NCBI GenBank assembly: GCA_021740045.1
Contig: JAIPAP010000002.1
Coordinates: 13,391-77,390 of the forward strand
Length of the DNA stretch: 64,000 bases
DNA from: Bacteroidales bacterium
Lineage (GTDB): Bacteria; Bacteroidota; Bacteroidia; Bacteroidales; JAIPAP01
Reading direction: 5' to 3'
Positions 12,549 to 45,050 of the stretch are shown one piece after another. The position numbers and the translations under genes are program-made. The stretch's first letter is position 1. Each line of letters opens with the position of its first letter. Under the pieces are notes generated by a model, which saw nothing but the letters and a program-made list of their open reading frames with translations, ran no database searches and had not been told where the DNA came from.

Positions 12549-13265
12549 TCAGCCCTTATCGCTGATCTTGACCAGGGCTTCACGGTCATGAATGGTGAAA
12601 TGATTATTGGACAGTTCAATAATGCGGGCATCTTTAAATTCCTTTAGAATACGTATGGCGCTTTCCTTACTCATGGAAGTTAAATCAGCAATGTCTTGCC
12701 TGCTTAATGGTGTTTCAAAACTGGTAGCGTTATGAATTTCATCGGCAAGGTATAATAATGCATCGGCAATACGCCCCGACATGTGCTTTTGGGTAAGGTT
12801 GATGAATTTTTTAAAGTTTTGTATTCCCTGTATATTATTCTTTTTAAGGATGTTAAGGGCCAGGTTCTGGTTCATTTTCATGATCTTCTCCAGGGAATTC
12901 ACATCTATAAAGCACGTTTGCACATCAGTTAAGGCCGCTACTGAAAAATGATGAATAAAATCAACATACATTCCCGGCCCACCAATAATGGCGTTTTCCC
13001 TGGCCACTTTAATAAGAAGGTTTTTTTTGTTAAGCCCCTCGATATATATTTTTACCATACCCTGCAGAATGCAGGCAATGTGGGTAAGCGCTGTACCTTG
13101 CTTAAACATAATTTCACCGGCGTTAAATTCAACTTCATGCCGGTTCTCATTCAGTATTTCAAGTTGTTCGGGTGATAATCCCCTAAAGATACTTTGAGTT
13201 AAACAGCATGTAGTACATGCCATCTTTCTTGAATATTTCGCCATTGAATCTCTCTTTTCCGCCAC
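12549..13265 (-). CDS. Crp/Fnr-family transcriptional regulator with an N-terminal Cys cluster
   Basis: cNMP-binding-like beta-roll and a C-terminal HTH (RQDIADLTSMSKESAIRILKEF). Cysteines sit at C17, C20, C21 and C118 (numbered from the track start), reminiscent of FNR iron-sulfur ligands. Confidence 0.85.
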   Translation of the reverse strand: MAEKRDSMAKYSRKMACTTCCLTQSIFRGLSPEQLEILNENRHEVEFNAGEIMFKQGTALTHIACILQGMVKIYIEGLNKKNLLIKVARENAIIGGPGMYVDFIHHFSVAALTDVQTCFIDVNSLEKIMKMNQNLALNILKKNNIQGIQNFKKFINLTQKHMSGRIADALLYLADEIHNATSFETPLSRQDIADLTSMSKESAIRILKEFKDARIIELSNNHFTIHDREALVKISDKG

Positions 13266-19949: not shown

Positions 19950-20366
19950 ATGAAAAGAATTTTAGCATTATTAATGGTTTTCAGCATGGCCATTATATTT
20001 TTAATGGCATTTACATTTCCACAAGATCAAAAAGAAGGCAAACCCTGGGATATTCCTGAAAAATACAAAAAGATGGAAAATCCGCATAAGGGTGACAAAC
20101 GATCGGTACGAATCGGCAAGATGCTTTATTCCAAGCATTGTAAATCGTGCCATGGCAACAAAGGAGCCGGTGACGGCCCGCGTGCCAAGCAACTGGAAAC
20201 ACAACCCAACGACTTTGGCACTAAAGAATTCCAGGAGCAAAAAGCCGGTGTGTTGTATTATAAATCATTTATCGGCCGTGGGGAAATGCCCAATTTCGAA
20301 AAGGAAATTCCCGTTGAGGAAGACCGTTGGGCTATTATCAATTACATGAGAACATTTGGTAAATAA
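19950..20366 (+). CDS. periplasmic monohaem class I cytochrome c (paralog 2)
   Basis: Same length (138 aa) as the 16024-16440 product. Roughly four-fifths of mature-region residues are identical by eye. CKSCHG motif, with aaggag upstream. Confidence 0.85.
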   Translation: MKRILALLMVFSMAIIFLMAFTFPQDQKEGKPWDIPEKYKKMENPHKGDKRSVRIGKMLYSKHCKSCHGNKGAGDGPRAKQLETQPNDFGTKEFQEQKAGVLYYKSFIGRGEMPNFEKEIPVEEDRWAIINYMRTFGK

Positions 20367-20376
20367 AGTCCTCACC

Positions 20377-20438
20377 CCCCTTTCGTTGCCAGAATACTTT
20401 TAAAAGACCTTCTTTTAACAGATCGGTTGCGAAAGGGG
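20377..20438 (+). terminator. long-loop hairpin downstream of cytochrome c paralog 2
   Basis: Arms cccctttcg / cgaaagggg with a ~45-nt loop, followed by ttgtttattt. It sits in the same place as the hairpin after paralog 1. Confidence 0.3.
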
Positions 20439-20892
20439 TTGTTTATTTCAACCACCTCATTACTCCAGCCTTCACTTATAGATGAAAACAAATTTTGACT
20501 TTGCGAAAGAGTTAGGAGCGAATATTCTGGGAAGTTGCCGCGTATTTGATTAGGAATGAGTATGAAAAGCCCGTCCATATGAATACGGCAAAAACGCTGG
20601 CTGGCGTGCGTTTGGAGCGAATTACATAAATCGTGAGTAATTGTCCTAACCTATCGGTTTGCAGCGGCTTAACGCGTGCCCGGCAAATTTCCTCGTTTGT
20701 AACGAGATTTTATTACACACCGCTAAAACCGGCATGATTTGCACATTGCAGGCAGCATTTAGCTTTATCTCATCACAGACGAGTGATATAGAAAGGCACA
20801 CGATGCTATCGCGCGCCAGCAGCCGGGTTGCAAAATTAAAAATGGCAAGGATTTGTATAGACAAAAGTTGAAAAGATCAAAGCTGATTTCGC

Positions 20893-21108
20893 AACCACTC
20901 ATTCCACCAATTAACCACTCAACCACTCAACCACTCAACCATTCAACCACTCAACCACTCAACCAATCAACCAATTAACCACTCAACCAATCAACCACTC
21001 AACCATTCAACCAATCAACCATTCAACCAATCAACCATTCAACCATTCAACCAATCAACCAATTAACCAATCAACCAATCAACCACTCAACCATTCCACC
21101 AATCAACC
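20893..21108 (+). repeat. 8-bp tandem repeat array, about 27 units of A(A/C/T)TCAACC
   Basis: Direct reading shows a strictly 8-nt register from 20901 to 21108. The plus strand has no G at all from 20892 to 21131. Confidence 0.95.
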
Positions 21109-21307
21109 ATACAATACATCACCTCTTTTCAGCATTATTAAAAACCAATACCAAAAATACCTTGCTTTTTTCCACATTTGTTTTTACTTTTAACCATTGA
21201 AATGCCTGATGGTTGTATTTGGTTGTTTGTGTTGCTATAGAATTCTTGTTTTCAGGCCTTTCCCGGTGTGGAAAAACAGCAAACAAAATAATTAAACTCG
21301 TAAAATC

Positions 21308-22765
21308 ATGAAAACCAAGTCCCTTTTTTCGCTACTGATCGGCCTGAGTATAATTCACCTTGCATTTACCCAAGAGCTTCACCAATGGCATGAACCTGTT
21401 ATGCTTACTGATTCTTTATCGGATAACCATGATCCCTGCATCAGCACCTTTAACTCCATTACCCCTGCTCAAAGCATAATGGCGTGGGAGAAAGTGATCA
21501 ATGAAAACACAACAGCCATTTGCATACGTGAACTCACAGAAATGCCCCCAACCGATACGGTTCTCTATGAAGATAATGTCCATTACCTGAACCCGGAGAT
21601 CATGAAACCTTATCATGGATTTCCCAAATCGGAGGTGATGTATTTATTGATTTATAACCGGGTTGAAGGAGAAGATCACAGCCTTGCATACTTTGAAGCT
21701 TATGATGACGGCACCTATTCGGAACCCACCGAAATTGCTTCTGCAATTGGCGATTCATTGGCATTTTCAGCGGCAAATGAAATTGGAATAGCTTACAGCA
21801 AGCAAGAGGAAATACGCTATGCTCCTTTGCTGGAAGAAAAATCGAAAGACCTGTATTTTGGCGAAGTCCAGGTAGTGGATACCGGGAATTGCTTCTCTCC
21901 ATTCCTTTCAATGGATTATAAGTTATGCTGGCTTAAAGCTGTGGATGATAGTATGGCTATTATGCATTCAGCATACAGTTTTTATCAGGATGAATGGTCG
22001 GAGCCCGAAGAAGTGTATAGAGGCCAAGAAATAACTGGGTTTGGCGGAAATAAGAAAGGAGCTTTTACAAGCCTTATTCATTGGTATGAACCGGCCGAGC
22101 CATACAGCAAGGTCTTTTATTATGGACTATTGAGCGGTGAACTTCACGAAATGGAAATACCGGAAAACACCGCTAAAAGTTACCCAACTGTAATCACCTA
22201 TCCAATGATCACCACCGGTTTTACTATTGTTGATGCCCTTATTGGCTTTGTCGTCGATTCGGGGGATAATCCTGAAATCTTTGCCAATAATCAAATGTAT
22301 GGCAGTTATCCCGAAATAAACATCTCCAATTATGCCGGGATGGATACCAAACCGGAAATGTTCCTGGGCGAAATAGGTCCATACTGGATGGAAATTCTTT
22401 GCACCTGGGAATCCTACCGGAACGGGCATTGGGTGATTATGAAGAATTACTTATATGCTGCATTAGGCAGCGTGGAGGAAACCGAAAGTACTGCCGGGGA
22501 TTTCAAATTGCACCCCAACCCAATGGATCATTCTGCTACTGTTAGTTATGAGCTGAACAATCCCGGCCCTGTTCGTATAAGCATTTACGATCAACGCGGA
22601 AAAATAATCAAAACACTGATTAATGAGGAAAAGGATAGCGGCCATCATCAAATCACATGGGACAGGACAAGTGCTGATGGAACTGATGTGCCGCCGGGTA
22701 TTTATTTGATTAGATTTAATACCGGGAGCCAATCTGCCTCCAAAAAACTAATAGTCATCCATTAA
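21308..22765 (+). CDS. T9SS cargo protein, tandem paralog 1 of 5
   Basis: Signal peptide MKTKSLFSLLIGLSIIHLAFTQ. Conserved family motifs (W.EPV.LTD..SDN..P, NISNY.G.DTKPE, WES.RNGHW). C-terminal HPNPMDHSATVSY...GIYLIRF. Confidence 0.85.
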   Translation: MKTKSLFSLLIGLSIIHLAFTQELHQWHEPVMLTDSLSDNHDPCISTFNSITPAQSIMAWEKVINENTTAICIRELTEMPPTDTVLYEDNVHYLNPEIMKPYHGFPKSEVMYLLIYNRVEGEDHSLAYFEAYDDGTYSEPTEIASAIGDSLAFSAANEIGIAYSKQEEIRYAPLLEEKSKDLYFGEVQVVDTGNCFSPFLSMDYKLCWLKAVDDSMAIMHSAYSFYQDEWSEPEEVYRGQEITGFGGNKKGAFTSLIHWYEPAEPYSKVFYYGLLSGELHEMEIPENTAKSYPTVITYPMITTGFTIVDALIGFVVDSGDNPEIFANNQMYGSYPEINISNYAGMDTKPEMFLGEIGPYWMEILCTWESYRNGHWVIMKNYLYAALGSVEETESTAGDFKLHPNPMDHSATVSYELNNPGPVRISIYDQRGKIIKTLINEEKDSGHHQITWDRTSADGTDVPPGIYLIRFNTGSQSASKKLIVIH

Positions 22766-22821
22766 AGGGAACATAGCCATTATGAAATTCACCAAATTGC
22801 GATAACCAAAATACATCAACC

Positions 22822-24276
22822 ATGAAAACTAAAAACATTTTTATGCTACTGATCAGCCTTAGTTTAATTCACCTTGCATTCGCGCAGGAATTTTACGAAT
22901 GGCAGGAACCGGTCATGCTTACCGATGCATCATCGGATAACTTCAACCCTTATATCAGCCATTTATACGCATCAAATGATCAAAAAACGATCATGGCATG
23001 GGAAAAGATCATCAATGAAAACACTACCGCCGTTTGCATGCGGGAATTGATGGAAATGACACCGGTAGACACTTTTTTGTATGAAGAAAATGTGCATTAC
23101 CTGAATCCTGAGATCATGAAACCATCATGGTTTTTTGATGGGTCGGAAATTCTCTATTTGCTTTTTTATAATAAGGTTGAAAGCAATACGCATAGTCTTA
23201 ACTATATAACTTTTTATGAAGACGGCACCTATTCTCCCCCTACCCCAATGGCCTCCAGTACAGAGGATTCACTGCATTTTTCGGTAGCCGATGGATTAGG
23301 CGTTTCATGGAATGAGGGAGGAGGCATTTATTTCTCCCGGGTTTTTAATAATGGGCCAAAAGGCATTCAATTGGGAAGCATCGATCAGCTCGACTCGGTG
23401 AATTGCAGCAACCCTGTCCTTACAAACCTTTTCCACTGTGCCTGGCTAAAACCCAACGGGAACAATCTTAGCATCTACTCTGCCGAGTATAACCCCTGGG
23501 ATCAATTGTGGAACGACCCGGTGGAAGTCCATACAGCTTCGGAAATAAAAGGATTTGGTGGAAGCACAAAAGCCTTTATGTATGATGCGTTGTTTTGGTT
23601 TGATCATAATGAGCCTTACAACAGGGCTTTTTATTATGATCTGCAATATGATGAGGTCATTGAAGTAGATAAGCCCTATAATACCGATAAAAGCTACCCT
23701 ACAGCCCTTGATCATCCCATTATGGTTACTGCTTTTGATATTCCCCAAACCCTTGTCTCATTTGTAGCTGACTCAGGGAATAATCCTGAGATTTATGCCA
23801 ATACCTATAATGGAGCGAATGAATATGTGAATATTTCGAATGATCCGGGCCTGGATACCAAACCAGAATTATACATCGGTGAAACGGGAGGTTATTGGAT
23901 GAAAATCCACTGCGTATGGGAATCGAAAAATAACGGGCATAGTGTATTGATGGGGAATTATATGAAGGTGATGATGGGAAGTACTAATGAAAACCAATCC
24001 CAACATAATGACATGAGCATCCACCCCAACCCCATGAGCAATTTAACAACCATTGAATACGCACTAAAGGAAAAAGGTGAGGTTTCCATTCAAATCTATG
24101 ATCAGCACGGAAAGCTAATCGACCATCTTGTCAATGAAGAAAAGGCGGCCGGAAGCCATCAAGTAAGATGGAATGGAACATCGATCAATGGAACACCGGT
24201 ACCGGCGGGGGTGTATTTGGTAAAGATAGAAACAAAAGGAATTACCGAAACTGAAAAATTAATCATCAACAAATAA
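22822..24276 (+). CDS. T9SS cargo protein, tandem paralog 2 of 5
   Basis: Closest to paralog 1 along the body of the protein. CTD is HPNPMSNLTTIEYALKEKGEVSIQIYDQHGKLIDHL. Confidence 0.85.
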   Translation: MKTKNIFMLLISLSLIHLAFAQEFYEWQEPVMLTDASSDNFNPYISHLYASNDQKTIMAWEKIINENTTAVCMRELMEMTPVDTFLYEENVHYLNPEIMKPSWFFDGSEILYLLFYNKVESNTHSLNYITFYEDGTYSPPTPMASSTEDSLHFSVADGLGVSWNEGGGIYFSRVFNNGPKGIQLGSIDQLDSVNCSNPVLTNLFHCAWLKPNGNNLSIYSAEYNPWDQLWNDPVEVHTASEIKGFGGSTKAFMYDALFWFDHNEPYNRAFYYDLQYDEVIEVDKPYNTDKSYPTALDHPIMVTAFDIPQTLVSFVADSGNNPEIYANTYNGANEYVNISNDPGLDTKPELYIGETGGYWMKIHCVWESKNNGHSVLMGNYMKVMMGSTNENQSQHNDMSIHPNPMSNLTTIEYALKEKGEVSIQIYDQHGKLIDHLVNEEKAAGSHQVRWNGTSINGTPVPAGVYLVKIETKGITETEKLIINK

Positions 24277-24300
24277 TGATCAATCCAAAAAAACTGCCCT

Positions 24301-25746
24301 ATGAAACCAAAAACCACATTTTTACTCGCAATAACCGTACTGCTGTCAAATCTTTTGGCAGCTCAGGAATTGTACGAATGGCATGGCGCTGAACTGATCA
24401 CCGACACAGTCTCGGATAATCATCATCCTTTTGTGATCCACTGGGATAACACCTATGTGTATTGGGAAAAATCGGCCGGTGATGCCACCATGATCTGCCG
24501 CAAGGACATTACCACTGAAAAAACTTCAATCGATACGATTTTATACCAGGATGGTGTCCATTTTAAAAATCCACGCGCTATGAAGCTCTCGCTCTTTCAG
24601 CGGCAAATTTACGATACCGAGTACATGTTGCTTTATGAGCGTTGGACAGATGAGGAAGGGAGTGTTTATTACCTGAAATATCAAAACGGGGGCATATTCT
24701 CCGATCCTATCCTCATCTCCGATTCATTATCGGTTGCAAACAGCGTTTTCTCAAGGTCACAACACGGGGCTGTTTGGCTTTTAGATAATAAAATCCTGTA
24801 CTCTAATCTTACGGTTGATGCCGGTTTTGAATCACCGGTTGTGATCGATTCGGGCAATTACCGGAAACCTGTCCTTACCATTGAAAACGGATGCGCATGG
24901 TTAACGGAGAGTGAAGCGCAAACACAGCTTCTATATGCTGAGCAGGATAAATCAAACGGTTGGATGGATCCCCAGGTGGTATATGAAAGCGACACCCTGT
25001 TTGACCTTACCACGGAATTGAATACAGCTATGAACGGGAGCTATTCACTTGTTTCATTCGGGACCGTTGAAAATCAAATGCATACGGTAAAAAATTACGA
25101 TATCGATGATAACACGATAAGGGATGTAGATTATCCTGAAAATGCCGAAAAGGAGCTTCCCACCGTAATTTCAAAATACATTCCGGTAAAAAGACTTGAT
25201 GCTTTTTTTTATACAGCCCTTGTTAGTGATACTGATTCCGGTAGGGAGATTTTCGCATCCGGGGATGGCTTTCAATCAATTAATGCAAATATCTCCAATT
25301 ATCCGGGAACCGATACCAACCCCAAGCTTTTCTACGGAGGTAGCGGTTGGGTCGATTCTCCATATGTTGAATTGATTTGCATATGGGAATCAAACCGAAA
25401 TGAACACTGGGCTTTGGCGATGAATAAAATCTGGATAGATGCAAGCAGTAGTCTTCTGGAAGAACCTTCAGATAATGCAAGCCTTTCCATAAAACCCAAC
25501 CCCATGAGCAATTCAACAACCATTGAATACGCACTAAAGGAAAAAGGTGAGGTTTCCATTCAAATCTATGATCAGCACGGAAAGCTAATCGACCATCTTT
25601 TAAATGAAGAAAAGGCTGCCGGAAGCCATCAAGTAAGATGGAATGGAACATCGATCAATGGAACACAGGTACCGGCGGGGGTGTATTTGGTAAAGATAAA
25701 AGCTCTAGGAATTACTAGAACTAAGAAATTAATCATCAACAAATAA
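24301..25746 (+). CDS. T9SS cargo protein, tandem paralog 3 of 5
   Basis: Second subfamily (shared with paralogs 4 and 5), yet its CTD is nearly identical to that of paralog 2. Confidence 0.85.
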   Translation: MKPKTTFLLAITVLLSNLLAAQELYEWHGAELITDTVSDNHHPFVIHWDNTYVYWEKSAGDATMICRKDITTEKTSIDTILYQDGVHFKNPRAMKLSLFQRQIYDTEYMLLYERWTDEEGSVYYLKYQNGGIFSDPILISDSLSVANSVFSRSQHGAVWLLDNKILYSNLTVDAGFESPVVIDSGNYRKPVLTIENGCAWLTESEAQTQLLYAEQDKSNGWMDPQVVYESDTLFDLTTELNTAMNGSYSLVSFGTVENQMHTVKNYDIDDNTIRDVDYPENAEKELPTVISKYIPVKRLDAFFYTALVSDTDSGREIFASGDGFQSINANISNYPGTDTNPKLFYGGSGWVDSPYVELICIWESNRNEHWALAMNKIWIDASSSLLEEPSDNASLSIKPNPMSNSTTIEYALKEKGEVSIQIYDQHGKLIDHLLNEEKAAGSHQVRWNGTSINGTQVPAGVYLVKIKALGITRTKKLIINK

Positions 25747-25769
25747 TTACTGATCCAAAAAACAAAGTC

Positions 25770-27200
25770 ATGAAACCAATACAAGTCTTAATTCTAGCGT
25801 GCATCTTGCTAATGAATCAATCCATTCACTCCCAGGAACTCAATGAGTGGCAAGGTGTAGAGTTAATCACAGACACCATCTCCGACAATCATAATCCTTT
25901 TATAATCAACTGGGACGGATTATTTATCTATTGGGAACGGTCAGCGCCGGAAGCCACCCTGATATGCTGCAAGAGCCTCTATAACCTCCAGGCTGAAGTC
26001 GACACCGTCTTATTTGAGCCGGGTGTGCATTTCAGAAATCCCCGGGGCTTAAAACTATCCCCTTATCAACAACTGACTTATGATGCCGAGTTCCTGCTGG
26101 TTTATGAAAGATGGGAAAATGATGAAGGCCATGTGGCTTACCTGAAATTTTATGGTGATGGCACATACTCCGATCCCATCCTTATTTCAGAAGAAATCGT
26201 TCCCATGAACAGCGTATTTTCCCGCGATGGTATCGGTATAGTTTGGATGGATGATGGAAGAATCATGTTTTCCAATCTAACAAATAATGCAGGTTTTGAG
26301 CAGCCCGTTGTGGTTGATTCGGGGAATTACAGAATGCCTGTGATTACTCCAACGTTTTATTTTGCCTGCCTTGCTGAAATCGGGGATCAAACCAATCTTA
26401 TGACCTTTTCAAATGGCCCCGAGCCACAAATTGAATATGAAGCTGATACACTTTTTGATTTAACGACAGAATTGAACCTGGGAATGAATGGAAACATGTC
26501 CCATATCTCTTTTGGTAGCATTGAAAATCAGCTGTATAAAGCTCAAATATACAGATTGGAGACATCAACCTTAACTGAAATTATCTATCCTGAGGGTGTG
26601 GAAAAGTTTTTTCCTTCTGTGATGTCGCTGGAAGTTCCTGTAAAAAAAACATATTTACCATGCATGGCAACTTTTGTAAGTGATACTGGAGACGGTAAAG
26701 AAATCTTCGCGGATGGCTTTTTTACTTCTCCGTCTACTCAGAATATTTCCAACTACCAGGGCACAGACACAAAACCCAAGCTATTTTATGGAGCCACTGG
26801 ATTTAAAGAGGGTATACGTGTTGAGATGATTTGTGTTTGGGAATCAAATCGCAACAATCACTGTGCACTTGCCATGAATAAAATTTGGATGGATATCCCG
26901 GGTAATACAGATGAAGGGGATCATGTTCAAAAAGCTTTTTCCATCAAACCCAACCCCATGAGCAATTCAACAACCATCGAATACACACTAAAGGAAAAAG
27001 GTGAGGTTTCCATTCAAATCTATGATCAGCACGGAAAGCTAATCGACCATCTTTTAAATGAAGAAAAGGCTGCCGGAACCCATCAAGTGCAATGGAATGG
27101 AACAACATTCAATGGAAAGCCGGTACCGGCGGGGGTGTATTTGGTTAAGATGGAAACAGCGGGACTGAGTCAGACAGGAAAATTGATCATTAATAAGTGA
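25770..27200 (+). CDS. T9SS cargo protein, tandem paralog 4 of 5
   Basis: Same family. CTD is KPNPMSNSTTIEYTLKEKGEVSIQIYDQHGKLIDHL. Confidence 0.85.
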   Translation: MKPIQVLILACILLMNQSIHSQELNEWQGVELITDTISDNHNPFIINWDGLFIYWERSAPEATLICCKSLYNLQAEVDTVLFEPGVHFRNPRGLKLSPYQQLTYDAEFLLVYERWENDEGHVAYLKFYGDGTYSDPILISEEIVPMNSVFSRDGIGIVWMDDGRIMFSNLTNNAGFEQPVVVDSGNYRMPVITPTFYFACLAEIGDQTNLMTFSNGPEPQIEYEADTLFDLTTELNLGMNGNMSHISFGSIENQLYKAQIYRLETSTLTEIIYPEGVEKFFPSVMSLEVPVKKTYLPCMATFVSDTGDGKEIFADGFFTSPSTQNISNYQGTDTKPKLFYGATGFKEGIRVEMICVWESNRNNHCALAMNKIWMDIPGNTDEGDHVQKAFSIKPNPMSNSTTIEYTLKEKGEVSIQIYDQHGKLIDHLLNEEKAAGTHQVQWNGTTFNGKPVPAGVYLVKMETAGLSQTGKLIINK

Positions 27201-27229
27201 TCTTCAAACCAGTATAAAAAAAATACATC

Positions 27230-28672
27230 ATGAGAACAACACACAAATTACTTCTTCTTTTAAGCATTTGGTTAGTTGCCAATGCCGGTTTTGCCCAGCC
27301 CTATGGACAGTGGCTGGATGCCAAACTGATCACCGATACGGTTTCGGATAACCACTATCCTTTCCTGGTGCATACCAATTTTACGTATGTGTATTGGGAA
27401 AAAACAGCCCCCGATGGCACAATGATCTGCTACAGGAATATTTCGGAAGAGAATTCCGAAACGGACACCATTCTTTATGAAGCCGGTGTGGATTTCCGCA
27501 ACCCGCGGGCAATGGACGTATCGCCTTATGCCGGTTACGATGCCGAGTACTTTTTGCTTTACGAACGCTGGGAAGACGATGAAGGCAGTATTCATTACAT
27601 GGAATGCGATAGTGACGGCCCCACTTCCGCTCCCATCCTGATCTCCGGCGATATCACTGTTTTGCACAGCATGTTTTCGCAGGATCGTGAAGGATTGGTA
27701 TGGATGAATGGGGAGGAGATTTTATATGCGCGGCTTACATCCGCTTCAGGATTTGATGAACCTGTGCTTATTGTTACAGGCAATTTCCTTTCGCCGGTCT
27801 TATCAATAGATGGGAATAAATGTGCATGGCTTTCATATAATGGTTCCCAAATGCAATTGATGTATTCCTTTGCAAAAGGCCGACATATGAAAAATCAAGC
27901 AATAGTAGCCTATGAGGCTGATACACTGTTCAATCTCACCACAGAACAAAATAATGGGGGCTTTAACTATGGGTGTATGGTATCATTCGGAACCAAGGAA
28001 AATCAAAATTATACTATAAAAAATCTTAGGCTTGACCATCCCGATCCATACAACATCATCTACCCGGAAGGCTATGATAAAATGCAGTCATCCATTTTAA
28101 CGCTTGATCAAATAGTCAAGCCTTTTAGGCCGGATTATCCCGGATGTTTAACCACATTAGTTTGTGATACCGGATCGGGTAAGGAAATATTTGCCAATTC
28201 ACCGGAATCGGTCCATACCACCATTAATATTTCAAATTATCCGGGAGATGATATAAAGCCAAGGCTTTTCTACGGTGCTGTTGAAAATGTAAAAGATCAA
28301 TCGGTTGAACAATTATGCTTATGGGAAACTTACCGGAACGGACATTGGGCATTAGCAATGAATAAAATAGTTTTCTTAATTACCGGTGAATCAGAAATAA
28401 AAGCGCCATCCCAAAACAAACTCACCATCACGCCTAATCCCATTGCCCAACATGCCACCATAAACTATTCCCTGGAGCATGCCGGTATAGTGAGCATTGA
28501 TATGTATAACCCGGACGGTATGCATATGATAAACCTGCTTAATGAAACCCAACAGCCTGGGGATCATGCACTAAACTGGAATAAGCAGGAATATCAACTC
28601 CCAGCCGGGGTTTATATCATTACCTTGAAAACAGCACAGGAAAAAATTTCACAAAAAGTAGTTATTCGCTAG
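27230..28672 (+). CDS. T9SS cargo protein, tandem paralog 5 of 5
   Basis: Same family, but with a divergent CTD (TPNPIAQHATINYSL...GVYIITL). Confidence 0.85.
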   Translation: MRTTHKLLLLLSIWLVANAGFAQPYGQWLDAKLITDTVSDNHYPFLVHTNFTYVYWEKTAPDGTMICYRNISEENSETDTILYEAGVDFRNPRAMDVSPYAGYDAEYFLLYERWEDDEGSIHYMECDSDGPTSAPILISGDITVLHSMFSQDREGLVWMNGEEILYARLTSASGFDEPVLIVTGNFLSPVLSIDGNKCAWLSYNGSQMQLMYSFAKGRHMKNQAIVAYEADTLFNLTTEQNNGGFNYGCMVSFGTKENQNYTIKNLRLDHPDPYNIIYPEGYDKMQSSILTLDQIVKPFRPDYPGCLTTLVCDTGSGKEIFANSPESVHTTINISNYPGDDIKPRLFYGAVENVKDQSVEQLCLWETYRNGHWALAMNKIVFLITGESEIKAPSQNKLTITPNPIAQHATINYSLEHAGIVSIDMYNPDGMHMINLLNETQQPGDHALNWNKQEYQLPAGVYIITLKTAQEKISQKVVIR

Positions 28673-28680
28673 AATTTAAA

Positions 28681-28706
28681 AAGCCGGGCTATGTGCCCGG
28701 CTTTAT
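28681..28706 (+). terminator. rho-independent terminator ending the paralog array
   Basis: Stem aagccgggc / gcccggctt with a 5-nt loop, 9 nt after the stop at 28672. Confidence 0.7.
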
Positions 28707-29030
28707 CTCGCTTTACCGTTTTTAACCAAAATCCTAAATTAATTAGCGAGAGATCTCCAAAATCGGTTGTCTAACAATGAAAATAAATGTTGTGCAAAAA
28801 CTATTCTCATAACTTCAAAATACCATGTAATATTTTACCCTCAATGTTAACAAATTGTTATAATTGATTAACCAATAAAACACTAATAGACTTATTATCA
28901 ATTTTTTAAACCCAGTTGTTCGAATTCGTATTTACAAGTACGAATAAATAAATTGTCATGTCGAATTCTTTTTATCCTGCATTTCATATCCTGTTTTGGG
29001 AAGATTTATCCCATTTTAGGTGAAATGCAA

Positions 29031-29717
29031 TTATATAAGACTAAGGGTTTTATAATAAGTATCGAGATAATCCTGAAGTTTCTTACGGCGGTATTGCATA
29101 ATAAAACGTGGATGTGCAAGAGGTATGATCTCCTTAAACAAGCCTTCACGTTTATTGAGCTTCTGCAGGTAGTTATAATTTTCTCCTTCTCCCAGGCAGA
29201 TCACCGTATCGGTTTTGATACCGAATGAAAGATGTTGCCGCAGACTCCATAGGATAAAAGGCTCCACAGCATGTTTTACAACCTTATCATCATAATAGTT
29301 AAGGTTTTTGCCGTTTTTCACAAATCCCAGGGGTGATACGGCACTGATCAGGTATCGTGCATAAAACCCGGCCGGTCCGCCAAAGCGGTCAATCATTTGA
29401 TAAATGAAATCCGAGGATAGCTCAGGCCTTTTCACAAAACCATTGGAAATACCACATTTTTCCTGCAAGCGGACAGGGTCGGTGAATGGGATGCCGGTAA
29501 CTCCCGCCCCAAAACGCCCTGGGTTAATGCCCAGCAATAAGATACGCTTTTTGTTGTCATCGTAATATTTTTTATAAAACTCACGGCACACGGCCTTAAC
29601 ACCATCATTATTGAATGGGTTCATTACCGATATTCTTTCCGGGAGTTCGACATCCAATTGCAATTGCTCATTAAAAGCGATGATACGGTCGGCCAGGGTT
29701 GTTTTGGTCATAAGCAC
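29031..29717 (-). CDS. uracil-DNA glycosylase superfamily protein (SMUG-like)
   Basis: The motif LLLGINPGRFGAGVTGIPFTDP resembles UDG-superfamily motif 1 and its neighbouring loop. The family assignment is from memory only. Confidence 0.5.
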   Translation of the reverse strand: MLMTKTTLADRIIAFNEQLQLDVELPERISVMNPFNNDGVKAVCREFYKKYYDDNKKRILLLGINPGRFGAGVTGIPFTDPVRLQEKCGISNGFVKRPELSSDFIYQMIDRFGGPAGFYARYLISAVSPLGFVKNGKNLNYYDDKVVKHAVEPFILWSLRQHLSFGIKTDTVICLGEGENYNYLQKLNKREGLFKEIIPLAHPRFIMQYRRKKLQDYLDTYYKTLSLI

Positions 29718-29721
29718 AAAT

Positions 29722-29967
29722 TTATAAAAACCTTCTAATCAACCAAAGCACAAACGAAATAAATGCGCTCAGCAATATCATGCTGGTAATGGGGAAATAA
29801 AACTGGAAATTCTCACGCTTAATGCGGATATCGCCGGGTAGGTTGCCAAACCAGCCGAAAATATTGCCAAACAGCCATATCAACCCACCAATAACAACGA
29901 GTATCAGCCCAATGATCAATATGAGTTTTCCTATGTTATGCATCGTTAAAAAATCGTGCTGATTCAA
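29722..29967 (-). CDS. DUF2905-like small membrane protein
   Basis: Two TM helices flank LPGDIRIKRENFQFYFPITSMILLS, which is characteristic of that family. Confidence 0.6.
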   Translation of the reverse strand: MNQHDFLTMHNIGKLILIIGLILVVIGGLIWLFGNIFGWFGNLPGDIRIKRENFQFYFPITSMILLSAFISFVLWLIRRFL

Positions 29968-30010
29968 TCCTCATAACATATAAATCAAAAAATTGTTATA
30001 TATTCGATAA

Positions 30011-31144
30011 ATGAAGCTTTTGCAGCGTTCAACCATGACAAGATACAAACGCTTAACCATAGTCACAATTGTATTTTCGTTGATAACCATCACCGGGAAC
30101 GGTCAGAACTATGGAAAAACGCTTCTTGACGACTGGCAGCACCCCAATGATGAGGTGCGTTTGCTCAATGGCGCCCGCATTGCTTTTTATAATGTAGAAA
30201 ACCTGTTCTATCCCTATGATGATAGTTTAAAGCTGGATGAGGAATTTACCCCATCGGGATTTCGGCACTGGACCTGGGAAAAGATGGAAACCAAGATCGA
30301 TCACATTTATAAAACCTTTAATGCAATGGGTGGCTGGGAGCTTCCGGCCATCATCGGGTTGTGTGAAGTGGAGAACCGGAAAGTATTAAACCGGCTGATT
30401 TATGAAACGCCACTCTCCCGTTTCAACTACCGGATTGTTCATGAAGAATCACCCGATTTCCGGGGGATCGATGTCGCCCTCCTTTATAATCCCATGAAAT
30501 TCGAATCAAGCTTTCACCGGGCCATTGAAGTGCGGTTTCCGTTCGATACGGTCTCAAGAACACGGGATATTCTTTATGTAAAAGGTCCTTTGCTGAATAA
30601 AGACACCCTGCACATTTTTGTGAACCATTGGCCATCGCGGTACGGAGGTTATGCAGCCACCAAACCCAAACGCAATGAAACCGCCCGCATCCTTCGTCAA
30701 AATGTCGATTCATTGTTTTTGGCTATTAAAGCTCCTCATATTATCATTATGGGCGACTTTAACGATGACCCGGATGATGAGAGCTTATCGCAAATATTGA
30801 ATGCACAACCGGTATCAAGGGTTATTAAAAGGGGAACACTTTACAATCTTATGCAAAATGCCTACCATTCACAATATGGCGGTAGCTTAAAACACCGGGC
30901 GCAATGGAACCTGTTCGATCAAATAATTATATCAAGCAGCTTACTCGATTCCACCGGTGTTTTATCCGTTGAAAACAATAAGGCATATATCTTTGACGCC
31001 CCTTATTTGCTGGAACCGGATGAAAAATTTATGGGGCGGAAACCTTTTAGAACCTATTCGGGCCCGCGCTATTTGGGCGGTTTCAGCGACCATTTACCGG
31101 TTTTTATTGATGTAATGTTGAATGAAAAAGACGCGCGTGAATAA
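30011..31144 (+). CDS. endonuclease/exonuclease/phosphatase (EEP) family protein
   Basis: Signal/anchor segment. EEP motifs GLCEVEN, VNHWPS, GDFND and SDHLPV. Confidence 0.8.
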   Translation: MKLLQRSTMTRYKRLTIVTIVFSLITITGNGQNYGKTLLDDWQHPNDEVRLLNGARIAFYNVENLFYPYDDSLKLDEEFTPSGFRHWTWEKMETKIDHIYKTFNAMGGWELPAIIGLCEVENRKVLNRLIYETPLSRFNYRIVHEESPDFRGIDVALLYNPMKFESSFHRAIEVRFPFDTVSRTRDILYVKGPLLNKDTLHIFVNHWPSRYGGYAATKPKRNETARILRQNVDSLFLAIKAPHIIIMGDFNDDPDDESLSQILNAQPVSRVIKRGTLYNLMQNAYHSQYGGSLKHRAQWNLFDQIIISSSLLDSTGVLSVENNKAYIFDAPYLLEPDEKFMGRKPFRTYSGPRYLGGFSDHLPVFIDVMLNEKDARE

Positions 31145-31979
31145 AACGGAAAATAAACAATCTTTTAAGCTACTGATCAATGCCACCCTTGTGTATATAC
31201 TGGCTTACCTGTTGATCTATGTTATGCACCAGGTCGCCACGGTTTTTGTGGCCTGGGATTTCTGGATCGACTCCAAGGTGTTGTATTATACGATCAGCTT
31301 CCTCTCACCCCGTTCATCTCCATTATGGTCATTCGATGCCACCGTATCAGTATTTTTGGCCGGACCCATTATTTCACTTTTACTAGGCATGATCTTTTTA
31401 ACAACGGTTAACTGGCTAACAAAATATAAACCTCATTTGCTCAACCTGTTTTTCATCTGGTGTTTTCTGCATGGTTTCAACTTCTTTTTCGGTGGGTTTA
31501 TCGATGGCATCCTAACCAATACCGGTTCATCCTATGTCGCAAAGATCATGGAGCTAAGTGAGGTGATCATTATCGACCTGATCATTATTGCAGTTTACTT
31601 GATGTTCCTGATCGGCGGTTATTCTTCAAAAATTTTCATTCTTTATTCACGGGGATTGAAAGCAACAACAGCACAGGAGCATTTCCGGTTGTTTACTATT
31701 CATTTTGTTCTGCCCTGGCTGATAGGGAGCACAGTATTGATCCTGTACAAAGCACCTCAATTCCCATTAAACGAATTGCTCATTCACCTTACCATGATTA
31801 TCTTTTTGGGGCCTGCCTTGTATTATCACCAACAGCTCAAAAAATCGAATGTACCTGTGCAGCCTATAAGACAACATCACAGGATACGCTGGGAACTAAT
31901 TGCTTTGGTCATAGCAACGCTTGCCGTTATTCGCTTTGGGTTGGATGAGGCTTTGGTGATCAATAATCCGGTAATTTAG
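31122..31979 (+). CDS. multi-pass membrane protein, unknown function
   Basis: Roughly seven hydrophobic helices and no recognisable motif. It overlaps both neighbours by about 20 nt. Confidence 0.5.
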   Translation: MKKTRVNKTENKQSFKLLINATLVYILAYLLIYVMHQVATVFVAWDFWIDSKVLYYTISFLSPRSSPLWSFDATVSVFLAGPIISLLLGMIFLTTVNWLTKYKPHLLNLFFIWCFLHGFNFFFGGFIDGILTNTGSSYVAKIMELSEVIIIDLIIIAVYLMFLIGGYSSKIFILYSRGLKATTAQEHFRLFTIHFVLPWLIGSTVLILYKAPQFPLNELLIHLTMIIFLGPALYYHQQLKKSNVPVQPIRQHHRIRWELIALVIATLAVIRFGLDEALVINNPVI

Positions 31980-34080: not shown

Positions 34081-34209
34081 GGCCGGGAATTTTACGGTAT
34101 AAATATAAACAAAAAGTCGTGATTTTTCAATAGCATCTGAGCATTAAATACCAGCATAGCTATCTATGGAGATGAATGCTTAAATTATGAAATGCATGAA
34201 AACAAAAGA

Positions 34210-34779: not shown

Positions 34780-34839
34780 TGGCTTTTAACAAAGATATAA
34801 CAAAAAACAATTAAATGATATTGCTTTCGCCTTGCTGTT

Positions 34840-36375: not shown

Positions 36376-36388
36376 AATAAGTTTCGTT

Positions 36389-37195: not shown

Positions 37196-37251
37196 TCTTG
37201 GGTTTTATTTTTTCGAAAATAAGAAAAACCTCTTATATCGATATTACAGGA

Positions 37252-37485
37252 TTATTGCGCCAAATTCTTAACTACTTCGTTTTTAATTGATTCAGCAGCA
37301 AATTTCAAGCATGCATATATATCCTCGTCATTTATCCTTGGGTATGCTTCCTTTATTTCTTCGATGACATCACCTTCACCAAGTTTTTCAAGAATTAAAT
37401 CAACCGGTATTCTTGTATTCTTGATTACCGGTTTCCCAAACATTATATTGGGATTTGATTCTATATGTAATTTCCAATTTACCAT
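37252..37485 (-). CDS. DUF433 domain protein (antitoxin-like, orphan)
   Basis: GKPVIKNTRIPVDLILEKLGEGDVIEEIKEAYPRINDEDIYACLKFA is the typical DUF433 core. Confidence 0.7.
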   Translation of the reverse strand: MVNWKLHIESNPNIMFGKPVIKNTRIPVDLILEKLGEGDVIEEIKEAYPRINDEDIYACLKFAAESIKNEVVKNLAQ

Positions 37486-38032: not shown

Positions 38033-38092
38033 AAACTATGCAGGAGGTTATCCACTCCTATCATTAATGAACTCAACTTACAATAGATAAGC

Positions 38093-38196
38093 AATCAACA
38101 AATCAACAAATCAACAAATCAACAAATTAACGAATTAACCAATTAACCAATTGACCAATTGACCAATCCACAATCCCACCATCCAATCAATTCCAC
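38093..38196 (+). repeat. 8-bp tandem repeat array, about 13 units of AAT(C/T)(A/G)AC(A/C)
   Basis: aatcaaca x4, aattaacg, aattaacc x2, aattgacc x2, then degenerate units. It lies immediately 3-prime of the nuclease stop codon and is related to the 20893-21108 unit. Confidence 0.9.
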
Positions 38197-38205
38197 CAAT
38201 TTATC

Positions 38206-40746
38206 TTACGGATAAACCACCACATCCTCGCCCTCCATCTTCAGCATATAGCCTTCACCGGCTTGCATATTACCGATATTATTCACCCAATTGGGGCCGA
38301 TCTTGCGCAGCATATCCCCTTCGGTATTACGCATAAACCCCATATGGCCCAGGATGCTTTGCATAGCTGTTAAAGCATCCATAGGCTGGTTGGGAAGAAA
38401 ACTAATAAATTGAAAACCGGCCTGAACGGGGATAGGGGTATCGGAAGCGATCAGATCACCTTCGATAACCAATTCATTGCCCGCGTTCATCTTTGCCAAA
38501 TAACCTTCAATGGTATTCCAGTCACCGATGTTATTGATCCAATTGGGACCGATTTTGTGCAACATATCCCCGTTTGAATTCCTGACAAACTGTAATCCGT
38601 TATCAAGCAAAGGCGCCATCACAGCCAACATATCGGGATCATTAGCTATCATATGGGATGAGATGATTTGATACCCCGATCCGAGTTGAAGGCTTTGTTG
38701 CTGCGGAGGCGCTTCACCTCCAAACCCCGGGCTGGCCCATATGCTATCGCCTTCGGCATTTACTGCTATAAAATGTTCCGACGCTTTCCAGTTGGCCGGA
38801 TCATCATTCTCATTCTCCGGATCAATAATTTCTAAAGACGGGCCGTAACTATCAGGTTGGGAGGGCCAGGAACCGCCATCATCATAATCGACCAAATCGA
38901 CCAAATTACCGGCCTGATCCTTTAATTCAACAGCTTCCCCACTATTGCTTAAGGCGCCACTGTTCCATTCCATGGCCTCTATACCAAATGTATTTTGAAA
39001 GGCATCGCCATTTTTAGCAATCAATACAATTGAACCTGGTTCTAAAATAACACCGGGAAAAGTATATGAAATGCCCTCCGAAAAATAATATCCGGTCATA
39101 TCAATGCTTGTTGACCCCGGGTTATAGATTTCAATAAATTCCAGGGAATCCTGACCCGATTCCGGTGGATTATACATAATCTCTGTGATCACCGGATCAT
39201 AAGCACCCGGCATTTCCTGTATGCTAAAAGAAGCATCACTTTCATCACTAATACCTTCTCCAGCCAATTCTATCACATATTGATCATCCTCTGGTAAACT
39301 GCCGGATACCGTCCATTGCCATGATCCTTCCTCCACGGGAACCGATTCAGCCAACACCCATTCATCAGGTCCGTTTTTCAGCAGAATATCAAGCTGACCA
39401 CTTAAGTTGGCATAGGTCCATTCAATAGCATAAGTATTAGTGAAATATAGTGTCACACCGCCGTTGGGCGAAGTCACAGCCAGCAATGGAGCATTTGGGA
39501 AATTGGCTTGGCCGGGTGTTCCCCCATTTTGCTCGCTGCCCGCCCAGTTTTCACCTTGGCTGTTATCCAGCTCAGGCTCCAACAACGAAAGTGATGACCC
39601 GCTGCCATCCGGTGCTGTGGGCCAGGGAGCATTATCCTGGTAAGGAACATGATCGATTAGTTGTCCCGTAGGGCTGTATAAATTCACCTCATCCTCATCG
39701 TTATTCAGGGCAAAATGGCCGGTGCCATCATAATCGGGATCAAACGGGAAATTGCCATTGGTAAAAATAGAAACAGTAAAGTAGCCATTTCCTGCTATCT
39801 GTGCCCCTTGTGGTAATACCACCGGATCATGCGAAAGATCATCGTCCAGGATGGTCCAGTTGCTCAAATCCACCGCCTGCTCCGAAGGATTATAGAGTTC
39901 AATCCATTCCTCGTCATATTCCTCCGAGTTATACATAATCTCATTCACAATGAGTGTATCGGTGGTGTTTTCTCCCCAAATCAGGCTAACGTATTCCGGG
40001 TGGTCGATGAAGGGATTGCGGTTTTCCTGATAGTCGTAAATAACTTCATTGCGGTTCAGCTCAAAATCATTGGGCGGGTCTTGCTGATGCCACTCCAGAA
40101 GCGTAGATAACTTGCCATGTTCCGGGTCAGGAGCTGTATTCACTTCATCCACAGCTTCCAGGTCGATCTCCATGGGATAATCTTCATAACGTATCACCAT
40201 GTAGAAGATCATGCGGGCCACGTCGCCTTTTACTTCATCGCGCGGCTCCCAGCTGTTCTCATCGGAATAGCAGCCGGTAGGAATAGTGCCGTATTTCAGG
40301 TATTCCTCTCCCCCATTATCAAAATCTTTGTTGCTCCGTGCCGAGTTTACCGAAATATCACAAGGTCGAAGATGATGCGCATCGGTGCCGGGACCTTCAT
40401 CGTCGGGATCCAGACCACCGTGTGACTGTGCCCACACATGCTCGCGCGACCAGCCGTTGCCGTTGTTGTATTCCTGCTCGGCATCCACGCTCCATCCGGT
40501 GTAAAATAAGATCACATTATCGGGATTGGAAGGGTCTTCATCACTATCTTTTAAAATGTCCCACAAATCAGTCCCCGAAGAAGTGTACTGATATTCGATA
40601 TGATCGTCGATAATGGCATTGAGAGCCGTTTTCAGCTCCTCACCGCTCAGTCCTTGTGCATCGTCATAATAACCGGGCGGAATTTGTCCGAATGCGGAAA
40701 TAACAAGAAAAACAAATAATCCTGCAAGTGCCCCTGCTCTTTTCAT
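38206..40746 (-). CDS. secreted endonuclease I family nuclease with two lamin-tail domains and two uncharacterised C-terminal repeats
   Basis: Signal peptide. Endonuclease I motifs (REHVWAQSHGG, DAHHLRPCDISVNSARSNKDF, PRDEVKGDVARMIFYM). LTD motifs (VNEIMYNSEEYDEEWIELYNPS and ITEIMYNPPESGQDSLEFIEIYNPGS). Two ~75-aa repeats contain F(V/M)RN..GDML.KIGPNW.NNIG. Confidence 0.85.
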   Translation of the reverse strand: MKRAGALAGLFVFLVISAFGQIPPGYYDDAQGLSGEELKTALNAIIDDHIEYQYTSSGTDLWDILKDSDEDPSNPDNVILFYTGWSVDAEQEYNNGNGWSREHVWAQSHGGLDPDDEGPGTDAHHLRPCDISVNSARSNKDFDNGGEEYLKYGTIPTGCYSDENSWEPRDEVKGDVARMIFYMVIRYEDYPMEIDLEAVDEVNTAPDPEHGKLSTLLEWHQQDPPNDFELNRNEVIYDYQENRNPFIDHPEYVSLIWGENTTDTLIVNEIMYNSEEYDEEWIELYNPSEQAVDLSNWTILDDDLSHDPVVLPQGAQIAGNGYFTVSIFTNGNFPFDPDYDGTGHFALNNDEDEVNLYSPTGQLIDHVPYQDNAPWPTAPDGSGSSLSLLEPELDNSQGENWAGSEQNGGTPGQANFPNAPLLAVTSPNGGVTLYFTNTYAIEWTYANLSGQLDILLKNGPDEWVLAESVPVEEGSWQWTVSGSLPEDDQYVIELAGEGISDESDASFSIQEMPGAYDPVITEIMYNPPESGQDSLEFIEIYNPGSTSIDMTGYYFSEGISYTFPGVILEPGSIVLIAKNGDAFQNTFGIEAMEWNSGALSNSGEAVELKDQAGNLVDLVDYDDGGSWPSQPDSYGPSLEIIDPENENDDPANWKASEHFIAVNAEGDSIWASPGFGGEAPPQQQSLQLGSGYQIISSHMIANDPDMLAVMAPLLDNGLQFVRNSNGDMLHKIGPNWINNIGDWNTIEGYLAKMNAGNELVIEGDLIASDTPIPVQAGFQFISFLPNQPMDALTAMQSILGHMGFMRNTEGDMLRKIGPNWVNNIGNMQAGEGYMLKMEGEDVVVYP

Positions 40747-41103: not shown

Positions 41104-41208
41104 CACGGCACGCGCCCGGAGGCGCGCGCCAACGATCTTTCTGCCAGTCGTGCCAGCCACGTATCCAAACACAAAAAAAGGGACAACCGCACCGGCCATC
41201 CCTTCTAT
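41104..41208 (+). repeat. GC-rich ~105-bp element, copy A
   Basis: It shares cacggcacgcgccYggaggcgcgcgccaac and cacaaaaaaagggacaaccgcaccggccatcccttcta with copy B. A degenerate extra hairpin copy is at 41041-41066. Confidence 0.8.
41173..41202 (-). terminator. terminator-like hairpin plus T7 inside copy A
   Basis: The minus strand reads gggatggccggtgcggttgtccc followed by ttttttt. No minus-strand gene currently feeds into it. Confidence 0.4.
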
Positions 41209-41244
41209 CTTCTATCTTCTACTTTCTACCTTCTACCTTCTACT
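41203..41244 (+). repeat. 7-bp tandem repeat, 6 units of TTCTAYN
   Basis: ttctatc ttctatc ttctact ttctacc ttctacc ttctact, directly after copy A. Confidence 0.9.
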
Positions 41245-41324
41245 TTATAACAAGATATAAATACCCAAAAATATGCGATAGTAATTAACGTTATCATGAA
41301 GTATGCAATCAAAGACGATTATCA

Positions 41325-41528: not shown

Positions 41529-41543
41529 GCAATTATTATAGCC

Positions 41544-43429: not shown

Positions 43430-43700
43430 TACCAACTTTGGGGTTTTATTAGGCATAGCGCCGCCAAAAAAGACACAAAAAATGAGAGGCACCCTAAAAG
43501 AACTTGGATACCCCTCAAAATGTGACTTTTCCGTTGGCCAAAACTATTCCTCAAAGGGTTGCTCCCCAGCAGAGCCCTTCTCCGCTTTGTTTTGGAATAC
43601 TAAGTTAAATCCCTGCCATAGTGTAAATCAAAAAAAGTTATTAACAATTTTTAGGGTTTAGGTAGGGAACCTATCAACCTATTTCATGGGGTTGCATGAA

Positions 43701-43742
43701 TTCTACCTTCTACTTTCTACCTTCTATTTTCTACCTTCTACC
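43701..43742 (+). repeat. 7-bp tandem repeat, 6 units of TTCTAYN, abutting the eno stop codon
   Basis: ttctacc ttctact ttctacc ttctatt ttctacc ttctacc. The eno stop codon is at 43743-43745. Confidence 0.9.

Positions 43743-45050
<1,308 letters not shown>

Follow-up and report, generated by a model that had tools for sequence, protein, structure and literature searches.

A 27-unit octamer array upstream of five type IX secretion cargo genes is a long member of a dispersed and strand-asymmetric class of short-unit tandem repeats

The DNA analyzed here (the window) is a stretch of 64,000 nucleotides (nt) from an 80-kb contig of a Bacteroidales metagenome-assembled genome (contig JAIPAP010000002.1, positions 13,391 to 77,390). 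Between a cytochrome gene cluster and five tandem paralogs with the C-terminal sorting domain of the type IX secretion system (T9SS) it carries an array of 27 octamers with the consensus A[ACT]TCAACC. This array belongs to a widespread class of strand-asymmetric short-unit repeats that are dispersed, labile in length, indifferent to the function of the neighboring genes and filtered by orientation. The unit of its own octamer family is (NNTCAACC)n on one strand and (GGTTGANN)n on the other. We consider it probable that the array is a very long and partly degenerated member of the class that was generated by slippage and is tolerated in its present orientation.

When cut every 8 nt from position 20893, the array yields eight copies of ACTCAACC, eight of AATCAACC, five of ATTCAACC, three of AATTAACC, two of ATTCCACC and a single degenerate first unit, AACCACTC. 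Tandem Repeats Finder reports period 8 at 20906-21109 with 25.5 copies, 88% matches and 0% indels. The initial annotation, made from the sequence alone, had described a strict 8-nt periodicity of about 27 units between 20893 and 21108 and this is confirmed, with all 27 octamers in a single register. It had also placed the variation at the second base and occasionally at the fourth. Base 2 is indeed the free position (A in 12 units, C in 8, T in 7 and G in none) and base 4 varies in three units, but base 5 varies as well, in two units. At every position except base 2 the consensus base is held in 24 to 27 of the 27 units. A two-unit pattern allowing up to two mismatches matches the window 29 times compared with 0.51 expected from shuffles, which agrees with the earlier view that the array is too regular for ordinary intergenic DNA. 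These head-to-tail copies of a unit in the 5 to 11 nt range far exceed chance length. The octamers are contiguous and lack the unique spacers that set apart the 23-50-nt repeats of a CRISPR.

The array is interrupted and its longest perfect run is three units. No exact internal repeat exceeds 31 nt, which makes the array resolvable by normal assembly (k of 33 or more). An independent Logan contig (SRR12088347) is identical to the window over the final 53 nt of the array and the 3 kb beyond. The array is non-coding. The open reading frames (ORFs) on either side end at 20366 and start at 21308, and there are TAA stops in all three forward frames and TGA stops in all reverse frames. Searches of Rfam gave no match at the gathering score in the whole window and none at an E of 1 or less in 20300-21400.

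The C-rich strand of the array has no G and is the sense strand for both neighboring operons. The absence of G from the plus strand at 20892-21131 had been noted before and holds for all 240 nt, which consist of the array and 23 nt of 3' flank. A run of this length has a chance of about 3e-19 at 20% G; the second-longest run without G in the window measures 58 nt. C makes up 40% of the tract and G 0%, there are 57 YC dinucleotides, and the highest C-minus-G excess among 78-nt windows across the 64 kb lies within it. As RNA it has a minimum free energy (MFE) of 0 kcal/mol, with no structure predicted.

To place the array among other genomes, the GTDB species representatives were scanned for three TCAACCAN units, a pattern that imposes the TCAACC core. 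At least 119 stretches were found and assigned to groups by their record titles. Among the matches listed, Bacteroidota/FCB contributed 68 loci, Chloroflexota 15, Planctomycetota 9, Desulfobacterota/Myxococcota 8, Proteobacteria 7 and Verrucomicrobiota 3, and the remaining 9 came from other lineages with one to a few each, including one archaeon. Cultured carriers include Mucilaginibacter galii CCM 8711 (L095), Segetibacter sp. 3557_3 (L098) and Perlabentimonas gracilis (L086). The initial annotation had proposed a search of the genome for further arrays, and such arrays exist in the window itself, where a second TCAAC array and two heptamer arrays lie within the same 64 kb. Dispersal within a genome is also seen elsewhere, with two to four loci each from several genomes among the matches listed. 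In the literature searched we found no description of the TCAACC octamer family.

Four units is the commonest length among 131 octamer arrays (typically 4 to 5, with a maximum of 36), although detection favors arrays of more than three units in these counts. The array in the window is the third longest of the 131 and is 5 to 6 times the typical length. Short-unit arrays of other kinds accompany the octamers. Tandem Repeats Finder identified 114 period-7 rows with diverse units in 847 kb of array-bearing loci, whereas 645 kb of unselected loci from distant relatives contained 7 period-7 rows and 6 period-8 rows. Some genomes are therefore generally prone to building arrays of 7- to 8-nt units. 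Control octamers of the same base composition were compared in viral contigs, where TCAACCAN gave 34 stretches, TACCACAN gave 3 and TCCAACAN gave 78. The triple TCCAACAN in these 78 viral contigs (L241-L318), many of which derive from metagenome 3300045988, may be a conserved three-unit site of one phage lineage.

The number of units changes quickly among relatives. Upstream of dapL, one locus (L110) has four units, while a relative with a 97% identical DapL has two units and a different spacer. Eight contigs of a relative at 87% identity have a 32-nt gap with no units at all. Paralogous elements within a single locus (L119) have either four or seven units.

The octamer arrays have no tie to the function of the genes beside them. 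In other genomes they adjoin genes for ABC ATPases, RbfA, RibH, thiolase, PNP, PAPS reductase, a CDF transporter, lipoproteins and others. These neighbors, spread over more than 100 genomes, are mostly ordinary housekeeping genes. The initial annotation had presented the array in connection with the paralogs downstream. This link is not supported because the same octamer adjoins the genes just named, as well as enolase and others, in more than 100 genomes.

The position of the arrays relative to genes is, however, far from arbitrary. For this analysis the C-rich strand was set as plus and long ORFs were called greedily. Within ORFs, 33 arrays have the C-rich strand as sense and 2 the G-rich strand (p 4e-8). 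Arrays of G-rich sense are found immediately behind genes: 33 of 47 lie within 25 nt of a stop codon, compared with 6 of 48 arrays of C-rich sense (p 7e-9), and often the TGA of their first unit is itself that stop codon. Near starts the relation is reversed, with 17 of 49 C-sense arrays but only 2 of 48 G-sense arrays within 25 nt of an ATG (p 2e-4). Skewed arrays with other units in the array-bearing loci show the same asymmetry. A random distribution relative to genes, named in the initial annotation among the joint grounds for abandoning a functional reading, is thus not what we see; placement is strongly polar to start and stop codons, though blind to gene function.

In the window the rule is obeyed by the second octamer array and by the heptamer array beside the enolase gene, both of which have G-rich sense after a stop codon. 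The 27-unit array fits the rule in that its C-rich sense faces the downstream gene, but the start codon is 199 nt away and the stop codon 526 nt away, both beyond 50 nt. The first of these distances, measured to the ATG at 21308, agrees with the approximately 200 bp given originally. Among the other arrays of 88 nt or more, those that precede a gene on the same strand also keep a distance of 39 to 1955 nt from its start.

Several of the apparent arrays within ORFs are extensions of the ORF through a stop-free array that precedes the true start. Examples are ORFs which, from their translations, we take to encode IspF, RsmH and MeaB. Genuine in-frame copies also exist and encode peptides rich in N, Q, S, T and P, such as TNQPINQSTNQP (L071, L096, L118, L049, L122, L047). 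They occur in the inter-domain linkers of giant multi-domain ORFs and also just after signal peptides. Judging from the translations, the hosts presumably include polyketide or nonribosomal peptide synthetases (with copies in the linkers), Tgt, a Mur ligase and an AcrB-like pump.

A second regularity concerns inverted pairs. Two or more tandem G-sense units are found within 300 nt on the 5' side of 22 of the 110 C-rich arrays with enough flank for the count, and on the 3' side of one (p 6e-6). These pairs form long hairpins with stems of 17 to 45 bp and z-scores of -4.9 to -13.8. In co-directional gene pairs the stop codon of the first gene marks the start of the G arm, and the C arm reaches to within a few nt of the ATG of the second. 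The hairpins fill the whole intercistronic gap and the base of the stem touches both the stop and the start. L097 is one example, and another is a junction (L050) that follows a 762-aa ORF that we take to be infB and precedes rbfA. Intrinsic terminators are present just past 2 of 27 G-sense arrays compared with 2.7 in shuffles, so the arrays are not simply set between a stop codon and a terminator. Enrichment between convergent genes, as an antisense insulator would give, was not found among 13 convergent and 22 co-directional pairs.

The features of the window and the inverted pairs are listed in Table 1. The second octamer array starts at the stop codon (38206-38208) that closes an endonuclease I/LTD gene, and 56 nt separate its end from a DUF6146 gene. 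The heptamer array on the minus strand adjoins the enolase gene (43743..45038, minus strand). The other heptamer array is an expansion within a repeated element: CTTCTAC is present once in the other copy of the element (42057-42116), as opposed to about eight units at 41196-41253. This GC-rich element of approximately 100 nt (CACGGCACGCGCC.GGAGGCGCGCGCCAAC ... AAAAAAAGGGACAACCGCACCGGCCATCCCTTCTA) is represented by two copies at 41038-41253 and 42021-42116 and a third partial copy. Just downstream of the heptamer array at 41196-41253, a small ORF is followed by a gene for a YafQ/ParE-type toxin (41544-41816), and the two (41325-41816) are probably a type II toxin-antitoxin pair. The repeated element is separated from the heptamer array on the enolase side by an IS3-family insertion sequence (42143-43653). 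This insertion sequence has 20-nt terminal inverted repeats that are 95% complementary and ORFs with an HTH_Tnp_1 domain (42180-42536) and an rve integrase core (42536-43429).

Table 1. Coordinates of repeats and neighboring features in the window and of inverted octamer pairs in other loci
Feature	Position	Strand	Remarks
Cytochrome gene cluster	ends at 20366	+	from ORFs and Pfam; upstream of the array
Hairpin followed by a T-rich run	20373..20448	+	just past the final cytochrome c gene (stop at 20366); z -4.05
G-free tract	20892..21131	+	240 nt, array and 23 nt of 3' flank; A 98, C 97, T 45
Octamer array A[ACT]TCAACC	20893..21108	+	27 units in one register; 216 bp; cut every 8 nt
Degenerate inverted units ATGGTTGTATTTGGTTGTTTG (GGTTGT type)	21209..21234	+	2-3 units, about 100 nt 3' of the array; complementary to array units
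Five tandem paralogs with T9SS C-terminal sorting domain	21308..28672	+	476-485 aa; gaps of 23-56 nt
Second octamer array	38088..38209	-	AATCAACA x4, AATTAACC, AATTGACC, then degenerate units; G-rich sense
Heptamer array CTTCTAY	41196..41253	+	about 8 units, expanded from a single CTTCTAC
Heptamer array	43699..43748	-	TTCTACC on plus, GGTAGAA on minus; starts directly at the enolase TAG stop
Inverted octamer pair, L012	1012-1160		
Inverted octamer pair, L023	4370-4482		
Inverted octamer pair, L097	2064-2175		
Inverted octamer pair, L104	985-1085		
Inverted octamer pairs, L050, L025, L046, L070, L082, L103			

The array occupies part of a 940-nt gap. The hairpin behind the last cytochrome c gene is a probable intrinsic terminator of the cytochrome operon and the array begins approximately 445 nt past it. 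The five paralogs probably form one operon with a promoter upstream of 21308. Their family is nearly an orphan. A search of a large protein database returned the protein itself, paralog 2 (48% identity), one JGI protein at 23% identity and a weak match to the C-terminal domain, and orthologous loci are therefore not comparable. An alternative route through the NrfA-like neighbor led to metagenome relatives at 42-60% identity, none of which have TCAACC arrays. None of the small ORFs in the gap has a Pfam match or crosses the array.

No inverted repeats flanking the array were found in the gap. A 10-nt complement to the 5' edge of the array at 20425-20434 was considered as a partner arm and rejected because it is part of the cytochrome c terminator hairpin. 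The degenerate inverted units on the 3' side give a C-first order, which is the rare chirality in other genomes, and so may be due to chance. The array is accordingly treated as a lone C-sense array whose 5' side lacks a G arm. The stretch from the array to the ATG of paralog 1 contains a 16-bp long-range complementarity, TTGCTTTTTTCCACA / TGTGGAAAAACAGCAA (21162-21178 and 21265-21282). This stem appears in both the MFE and centroid folds of 21132-21310, yet the z-score of -0.68 is not significant.

Scans for sigma-70 and Bacteroidetes -33/-7 promoters gave weak to modest candidates of equal quality on both sides of the array. Upstream there is a Bacteroidetes-type site, TTTG-N18-TAGCTTTA (20738-20767), and downstream a site TTG-N20-TACTTTTA (21162-21192). 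The position of the promoter is therefore ambiguous, as is the co-transcription of the array with the operon.

In the reading that we think probable, replication slippage of an 8-nt seed would account for the origin of the array and for changes in its length. The array would persist since its orientation is harmless for the downstream operon. A sense strand without G yields RNA that lacks structure, ATG, GTG or TTG starts and any Shine-Dalgarno-like GG, and the only stops possible in it would be TAA. A dedicated sequence-specific factor would be unnecessary and there would be no specific connection to the five paralogs. Physically, the array might act as 216 bp of spacing that separates the promoter of the T9SS cargo genes from the terminator region behind cytochrome c. 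Alternatively, if the promoter lies upstream, it may contribute a 240-nt unstructured C/A-rich stretch to the leader.

Several observations weigh against this reading. Seven of the eight positions of the unit are nearly invariant, and position 2, saturated with the other three bases, is never G. The core and the lack of G look constrained rather than left to free drift, a hint of single-strand selection. There is also the recurrence of the TCAACC core across phyla, although this is not an unbiased result because the search pattern imposed the core. The polarity and the hairpin pairs show that at least some members are selected for position. A passive model fits this only partly, and the G-sense arrays that start exactly at stop codons are left unexplained. 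Finally, this array is 5 to 6 times the usual length and away from a gene boundary, so it may differ in behavior from the short arrays.

The composition of the tract is ideal for Rho entry, and for this reason an RNA-level role is kept as the main rival, although we regard it as rather unlikely. In this model the array would act in cis as part of a transcribed leader or read-through RNA, either as a rut-like Rho entry site or as a landing pad for the ribosome or S1. Entry of Rho would make expression dependent on translation or antitermination or would insulate the operon. Entry (rut) sites are stretches of at least 70-80 nt that are C-rich, G-poor and unstructured, and the unfolded 240-nt tract, with its top C-minus-G excess, has all of these properties. 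The absence of G even at the free position is what single-strand selection would give. C-sense arrays in other genomes adjoin start codons and take the place of any Shine-Dalgarno region. In addition, the Xanthomonas heptamer repeats are mostly transcribed, and transcripts start or stop inside them more than in controls (PMC4692102). The promoter-like site at 20738-20767 would place the array in the transcript, but the one at 21162-21192 is equally good and would not. In other Bacteroidota with arrays 90 nt or more from the ATG, a strict -7 box (TAnnTTTG) was found 10 times between the array and the gene and twice upstream, so such distant arrays appear to lie outside the mRNA. The upstream operon is already ended by a strong intrinsic terminator, and the likeness to rut sites is drawn from general knowledge of Rho.

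A broader version of the RNA model is more speculative and we give it a small chance. Here (NNTCAACC)n/(GGTTGANN)n arrays would constitute a cross-phylum cis-acting RNA system, with paired arms forming intercistronic hairpins and lone C-rich arrays serving as structure-free leaders or Rho entry sites. The base of a hairpin would join the upstream stop to the downstream start and might bring about translational coupling, processing or control of stability. The 27-unit array would then set the expression of the T9SS cargo, and the unit number would be a tunable and heritable dial.

A slipped-strand contingency locus, as suggested in the initial annotation, is an improbable role for the array. 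Gain or loss of 8-bp units would shift the distance and helical phase of upstream elements relative to the promoter of a surface-protein operon and create on and off subpopulations. The downstream genes do encode secreted or surface T9SS cargo in five paralogous copies, and members of the octamer family change their unit number fast. Assembly data also bear on this model. From the window sequence, a de Bruijn simulation at k=31 gives unitigs at 21016-24074 and 27049-41199, while the real k=31 Logan contigs span 21056-24074 and 38102-41199. The far ends match the simulation exactly but the array-side ends differ and fall inside the octamer arrays, where the simulation predicts no break, which points to an extra branch inside both arrays. 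The extra branch could be a length or sequence polymorphism; it could equally represent the same 30-mers in other arrays of the genome outside the window.

More than one strain is present in the samples. Two independent Logan contigs, one from SRR12088346 and one from SRR12088347, share an end at 20682, in unique sequence that precedes the array by 210 nt. Both carry T where the window has G at two single nucleotide polymorphisms, 17890 and 20368. The two polymorphisms show that at least two strains co-exist in the samples, and the shared contig end indicates some variant just after 20682. The contig ends also prompted us to consider an invertible promoter, which was rejected because flanking inverted repeats are absent and the spacer has no second copy in the window.

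Other evidence speaks against a switch. The repeat is interrupted, with 88% matches and perfect runs of no more than three units. It is outside ORFs, is not between promoter hexamers, lies 199 nt from the ATG and has no evident upstream activator site. The neighbors of the family are housekeeping genes with no enrichment of surface proteins, as is also the case for the heptamers (Rehm et al., PMC4692102). Of the original suggestion, slippage stands as the most plausible origin, given related arrays of 4, 2 and 0 units, while the role as a switch is not supported.

An array of binding sites for a sequence-specific or nucleoid-associated protein that recognizes TCAACCA/TGGTTGA was also proposed initially, and it now has a slimmer chance still. 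The unit has a conserved 7-nt core with one free position and the core recurs in many genomes. By analogy, the related octamers TWGTTGAY and GTTGCTYN have been proposed as regulator sites by Geobacter genome annotators. However, contiguous 8-bp sites rotate by approximately 274 degrees per unit, so that adjacent sites do not share a helical face as spaced iterons or operators do. The neighbors are cytochrome c and T9SS cargo genes, with no gene for a DNA-binding protein as might accompany iterons or operators. A duplex binder indifferent to the free position would not bar G from one strand only, and the absence of G at that position favors a constraint on a single strand (RNA). The orientation of the arrays follows start and stop codons, not promoters, and in-frame copies occur inside proteins. 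A single shared factor is also unlikely for a family found from Bacteroidota to Planctomycetota and in one archaeon. The proposal thus finds no support.

The least probable of the alternatives is a non-B DNA structure with a local effect on transcription or replication, in which the C-free strand, with GG every 8 nt (27 tracts), forms two-tetrad G-quadruplexes and the C-rich strand an i-motif: the closest published class, GGGAATC/GGGGAYT, forms G-quadruplexes in vitro and prefers four units (PMC4692102), and the octamer family also peaks at four units (with detection favoring more than three), but the G-rich unit GGTTGATT gives only GG doublets with 6-nt loops, a weak two-tetrad arrangement by general knowledge, and 27 units are far above the need of a single quadruplex.

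Cyanobacterial short tandemly repeated repetitive (STRR) heptamers are comparable short-unit tandem repeats. The closest likeness is to the heptamers GGGAATC of Xanthomonas and GGGGA(C/T)T of Nostoc, which are intergenic, dispersed and strand-asymmetric with 2-26 units (Rehm et al. 2015, PMC4692102). Their G-rich sense lies up to 50 bp after a stop codon or overlaps it, and their C-rich sense up to 50 bp before a start. The G-rich sense is under-represented in ORFs and inverted tandem pairs occur. The neighboring genes share no functional theme, array length differs between close relatives and no function has been established (PMC4692102). The octamer family follows the same start/stop polarity rule and also has inverted pairs. 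It differs in its 8-nt unit, in having GG doublets only with weak G-quadruplex potential, and in its hosts, which are mainly Bacteroidota, Chloroflexota and Planctomycetota. The array in the window further differs in being a lone, interrupted array of 27 units away from a gene boundary.

TAACTGA heptamers are direct repeats known from Beggiatoaceae, Cyanobacteria and some Bacteroidetes (MacGregor 2015, PMC4679880). They are mostly found just upstream of start codons in one orientation, with a few reversed copies right after stops. In Bacteroidetes intergenic regions they reach 43 copies and are mixed with other heptamers. They are missing from close relatives, assemblies break inside them and their neighboring genes show no functional pattern (PMC4679880). 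The placement of the octamers upstream of starts, or reversed after stops, is similar. Unlike the octamers, TAACTGA is not G/C-skewed and has stop codons in its forward orientation, whereas the forward (C-rich) orientation of the octamer has none.

Long repeats of 5- to 11-nt units are sporadic across phyla and have been explained by slippage of the polymerase; those with a unit length not divisible by 3 are mostly non-coding, and heptamers are the dominant class, according to the work of Mrazek et al. (2007) as summarized in PMC4679880. The array is likewise an over-long array of a unit in this size range, but its unit is an octamer, not a heptamer, and comes from a TCAACC family with a cross-phylum spread.

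The Geobacter octamers have a GTTGA core and form intergenic inverted tandem pairs like those described here, and one of our loci (L066) is also a Geobacter match. They differ in that only 2+2 units have been described and that they are interpreted, as a proposal, as regulator sites. A separate, unselected metagenome locus (L201) carries inverted octamer arrays at 136-209 and 12649-12741 (GTTGCTTG / ACCCAGCA and GGGTTGCT / AACCCAGC) that resemble the GTTGCTYN 'class 1 sites' of Geobacter metallireducens. Simple sequence repeat contingency loci (Neisseria, Haemophilus; the AGAT repeat in the 5' untranslated region of Moraxella uspA2) share with the array a tandem repeat upstream of surface-protein genes and a slippage-prone length. 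These loci, however, are perfect 1- to 5-nt repeats in ORFs or at critical promoter or untranslated-region sites, whereas the array is an interrupted octamer repeat from a family with no preference for surface genes.

Tandem repeats of 7- to 8-nt units are abundant in some bacterial phyla. A family of octamers with a TCAACC core is common in Bacteroidota and beyond, and it obeys the same polarity rule as unrelated G-rich heptamers. The generality of this rule points to a cause in translation or transcription and not in one binding protein. For annotation, arrays of 7- to 8-nt units should not be taken as regulators specific to the adjacent genes. The octamer family, its polarity rule and its hairpin pairs carry a puzzling phenomenon into new phyla in a form that is testable.

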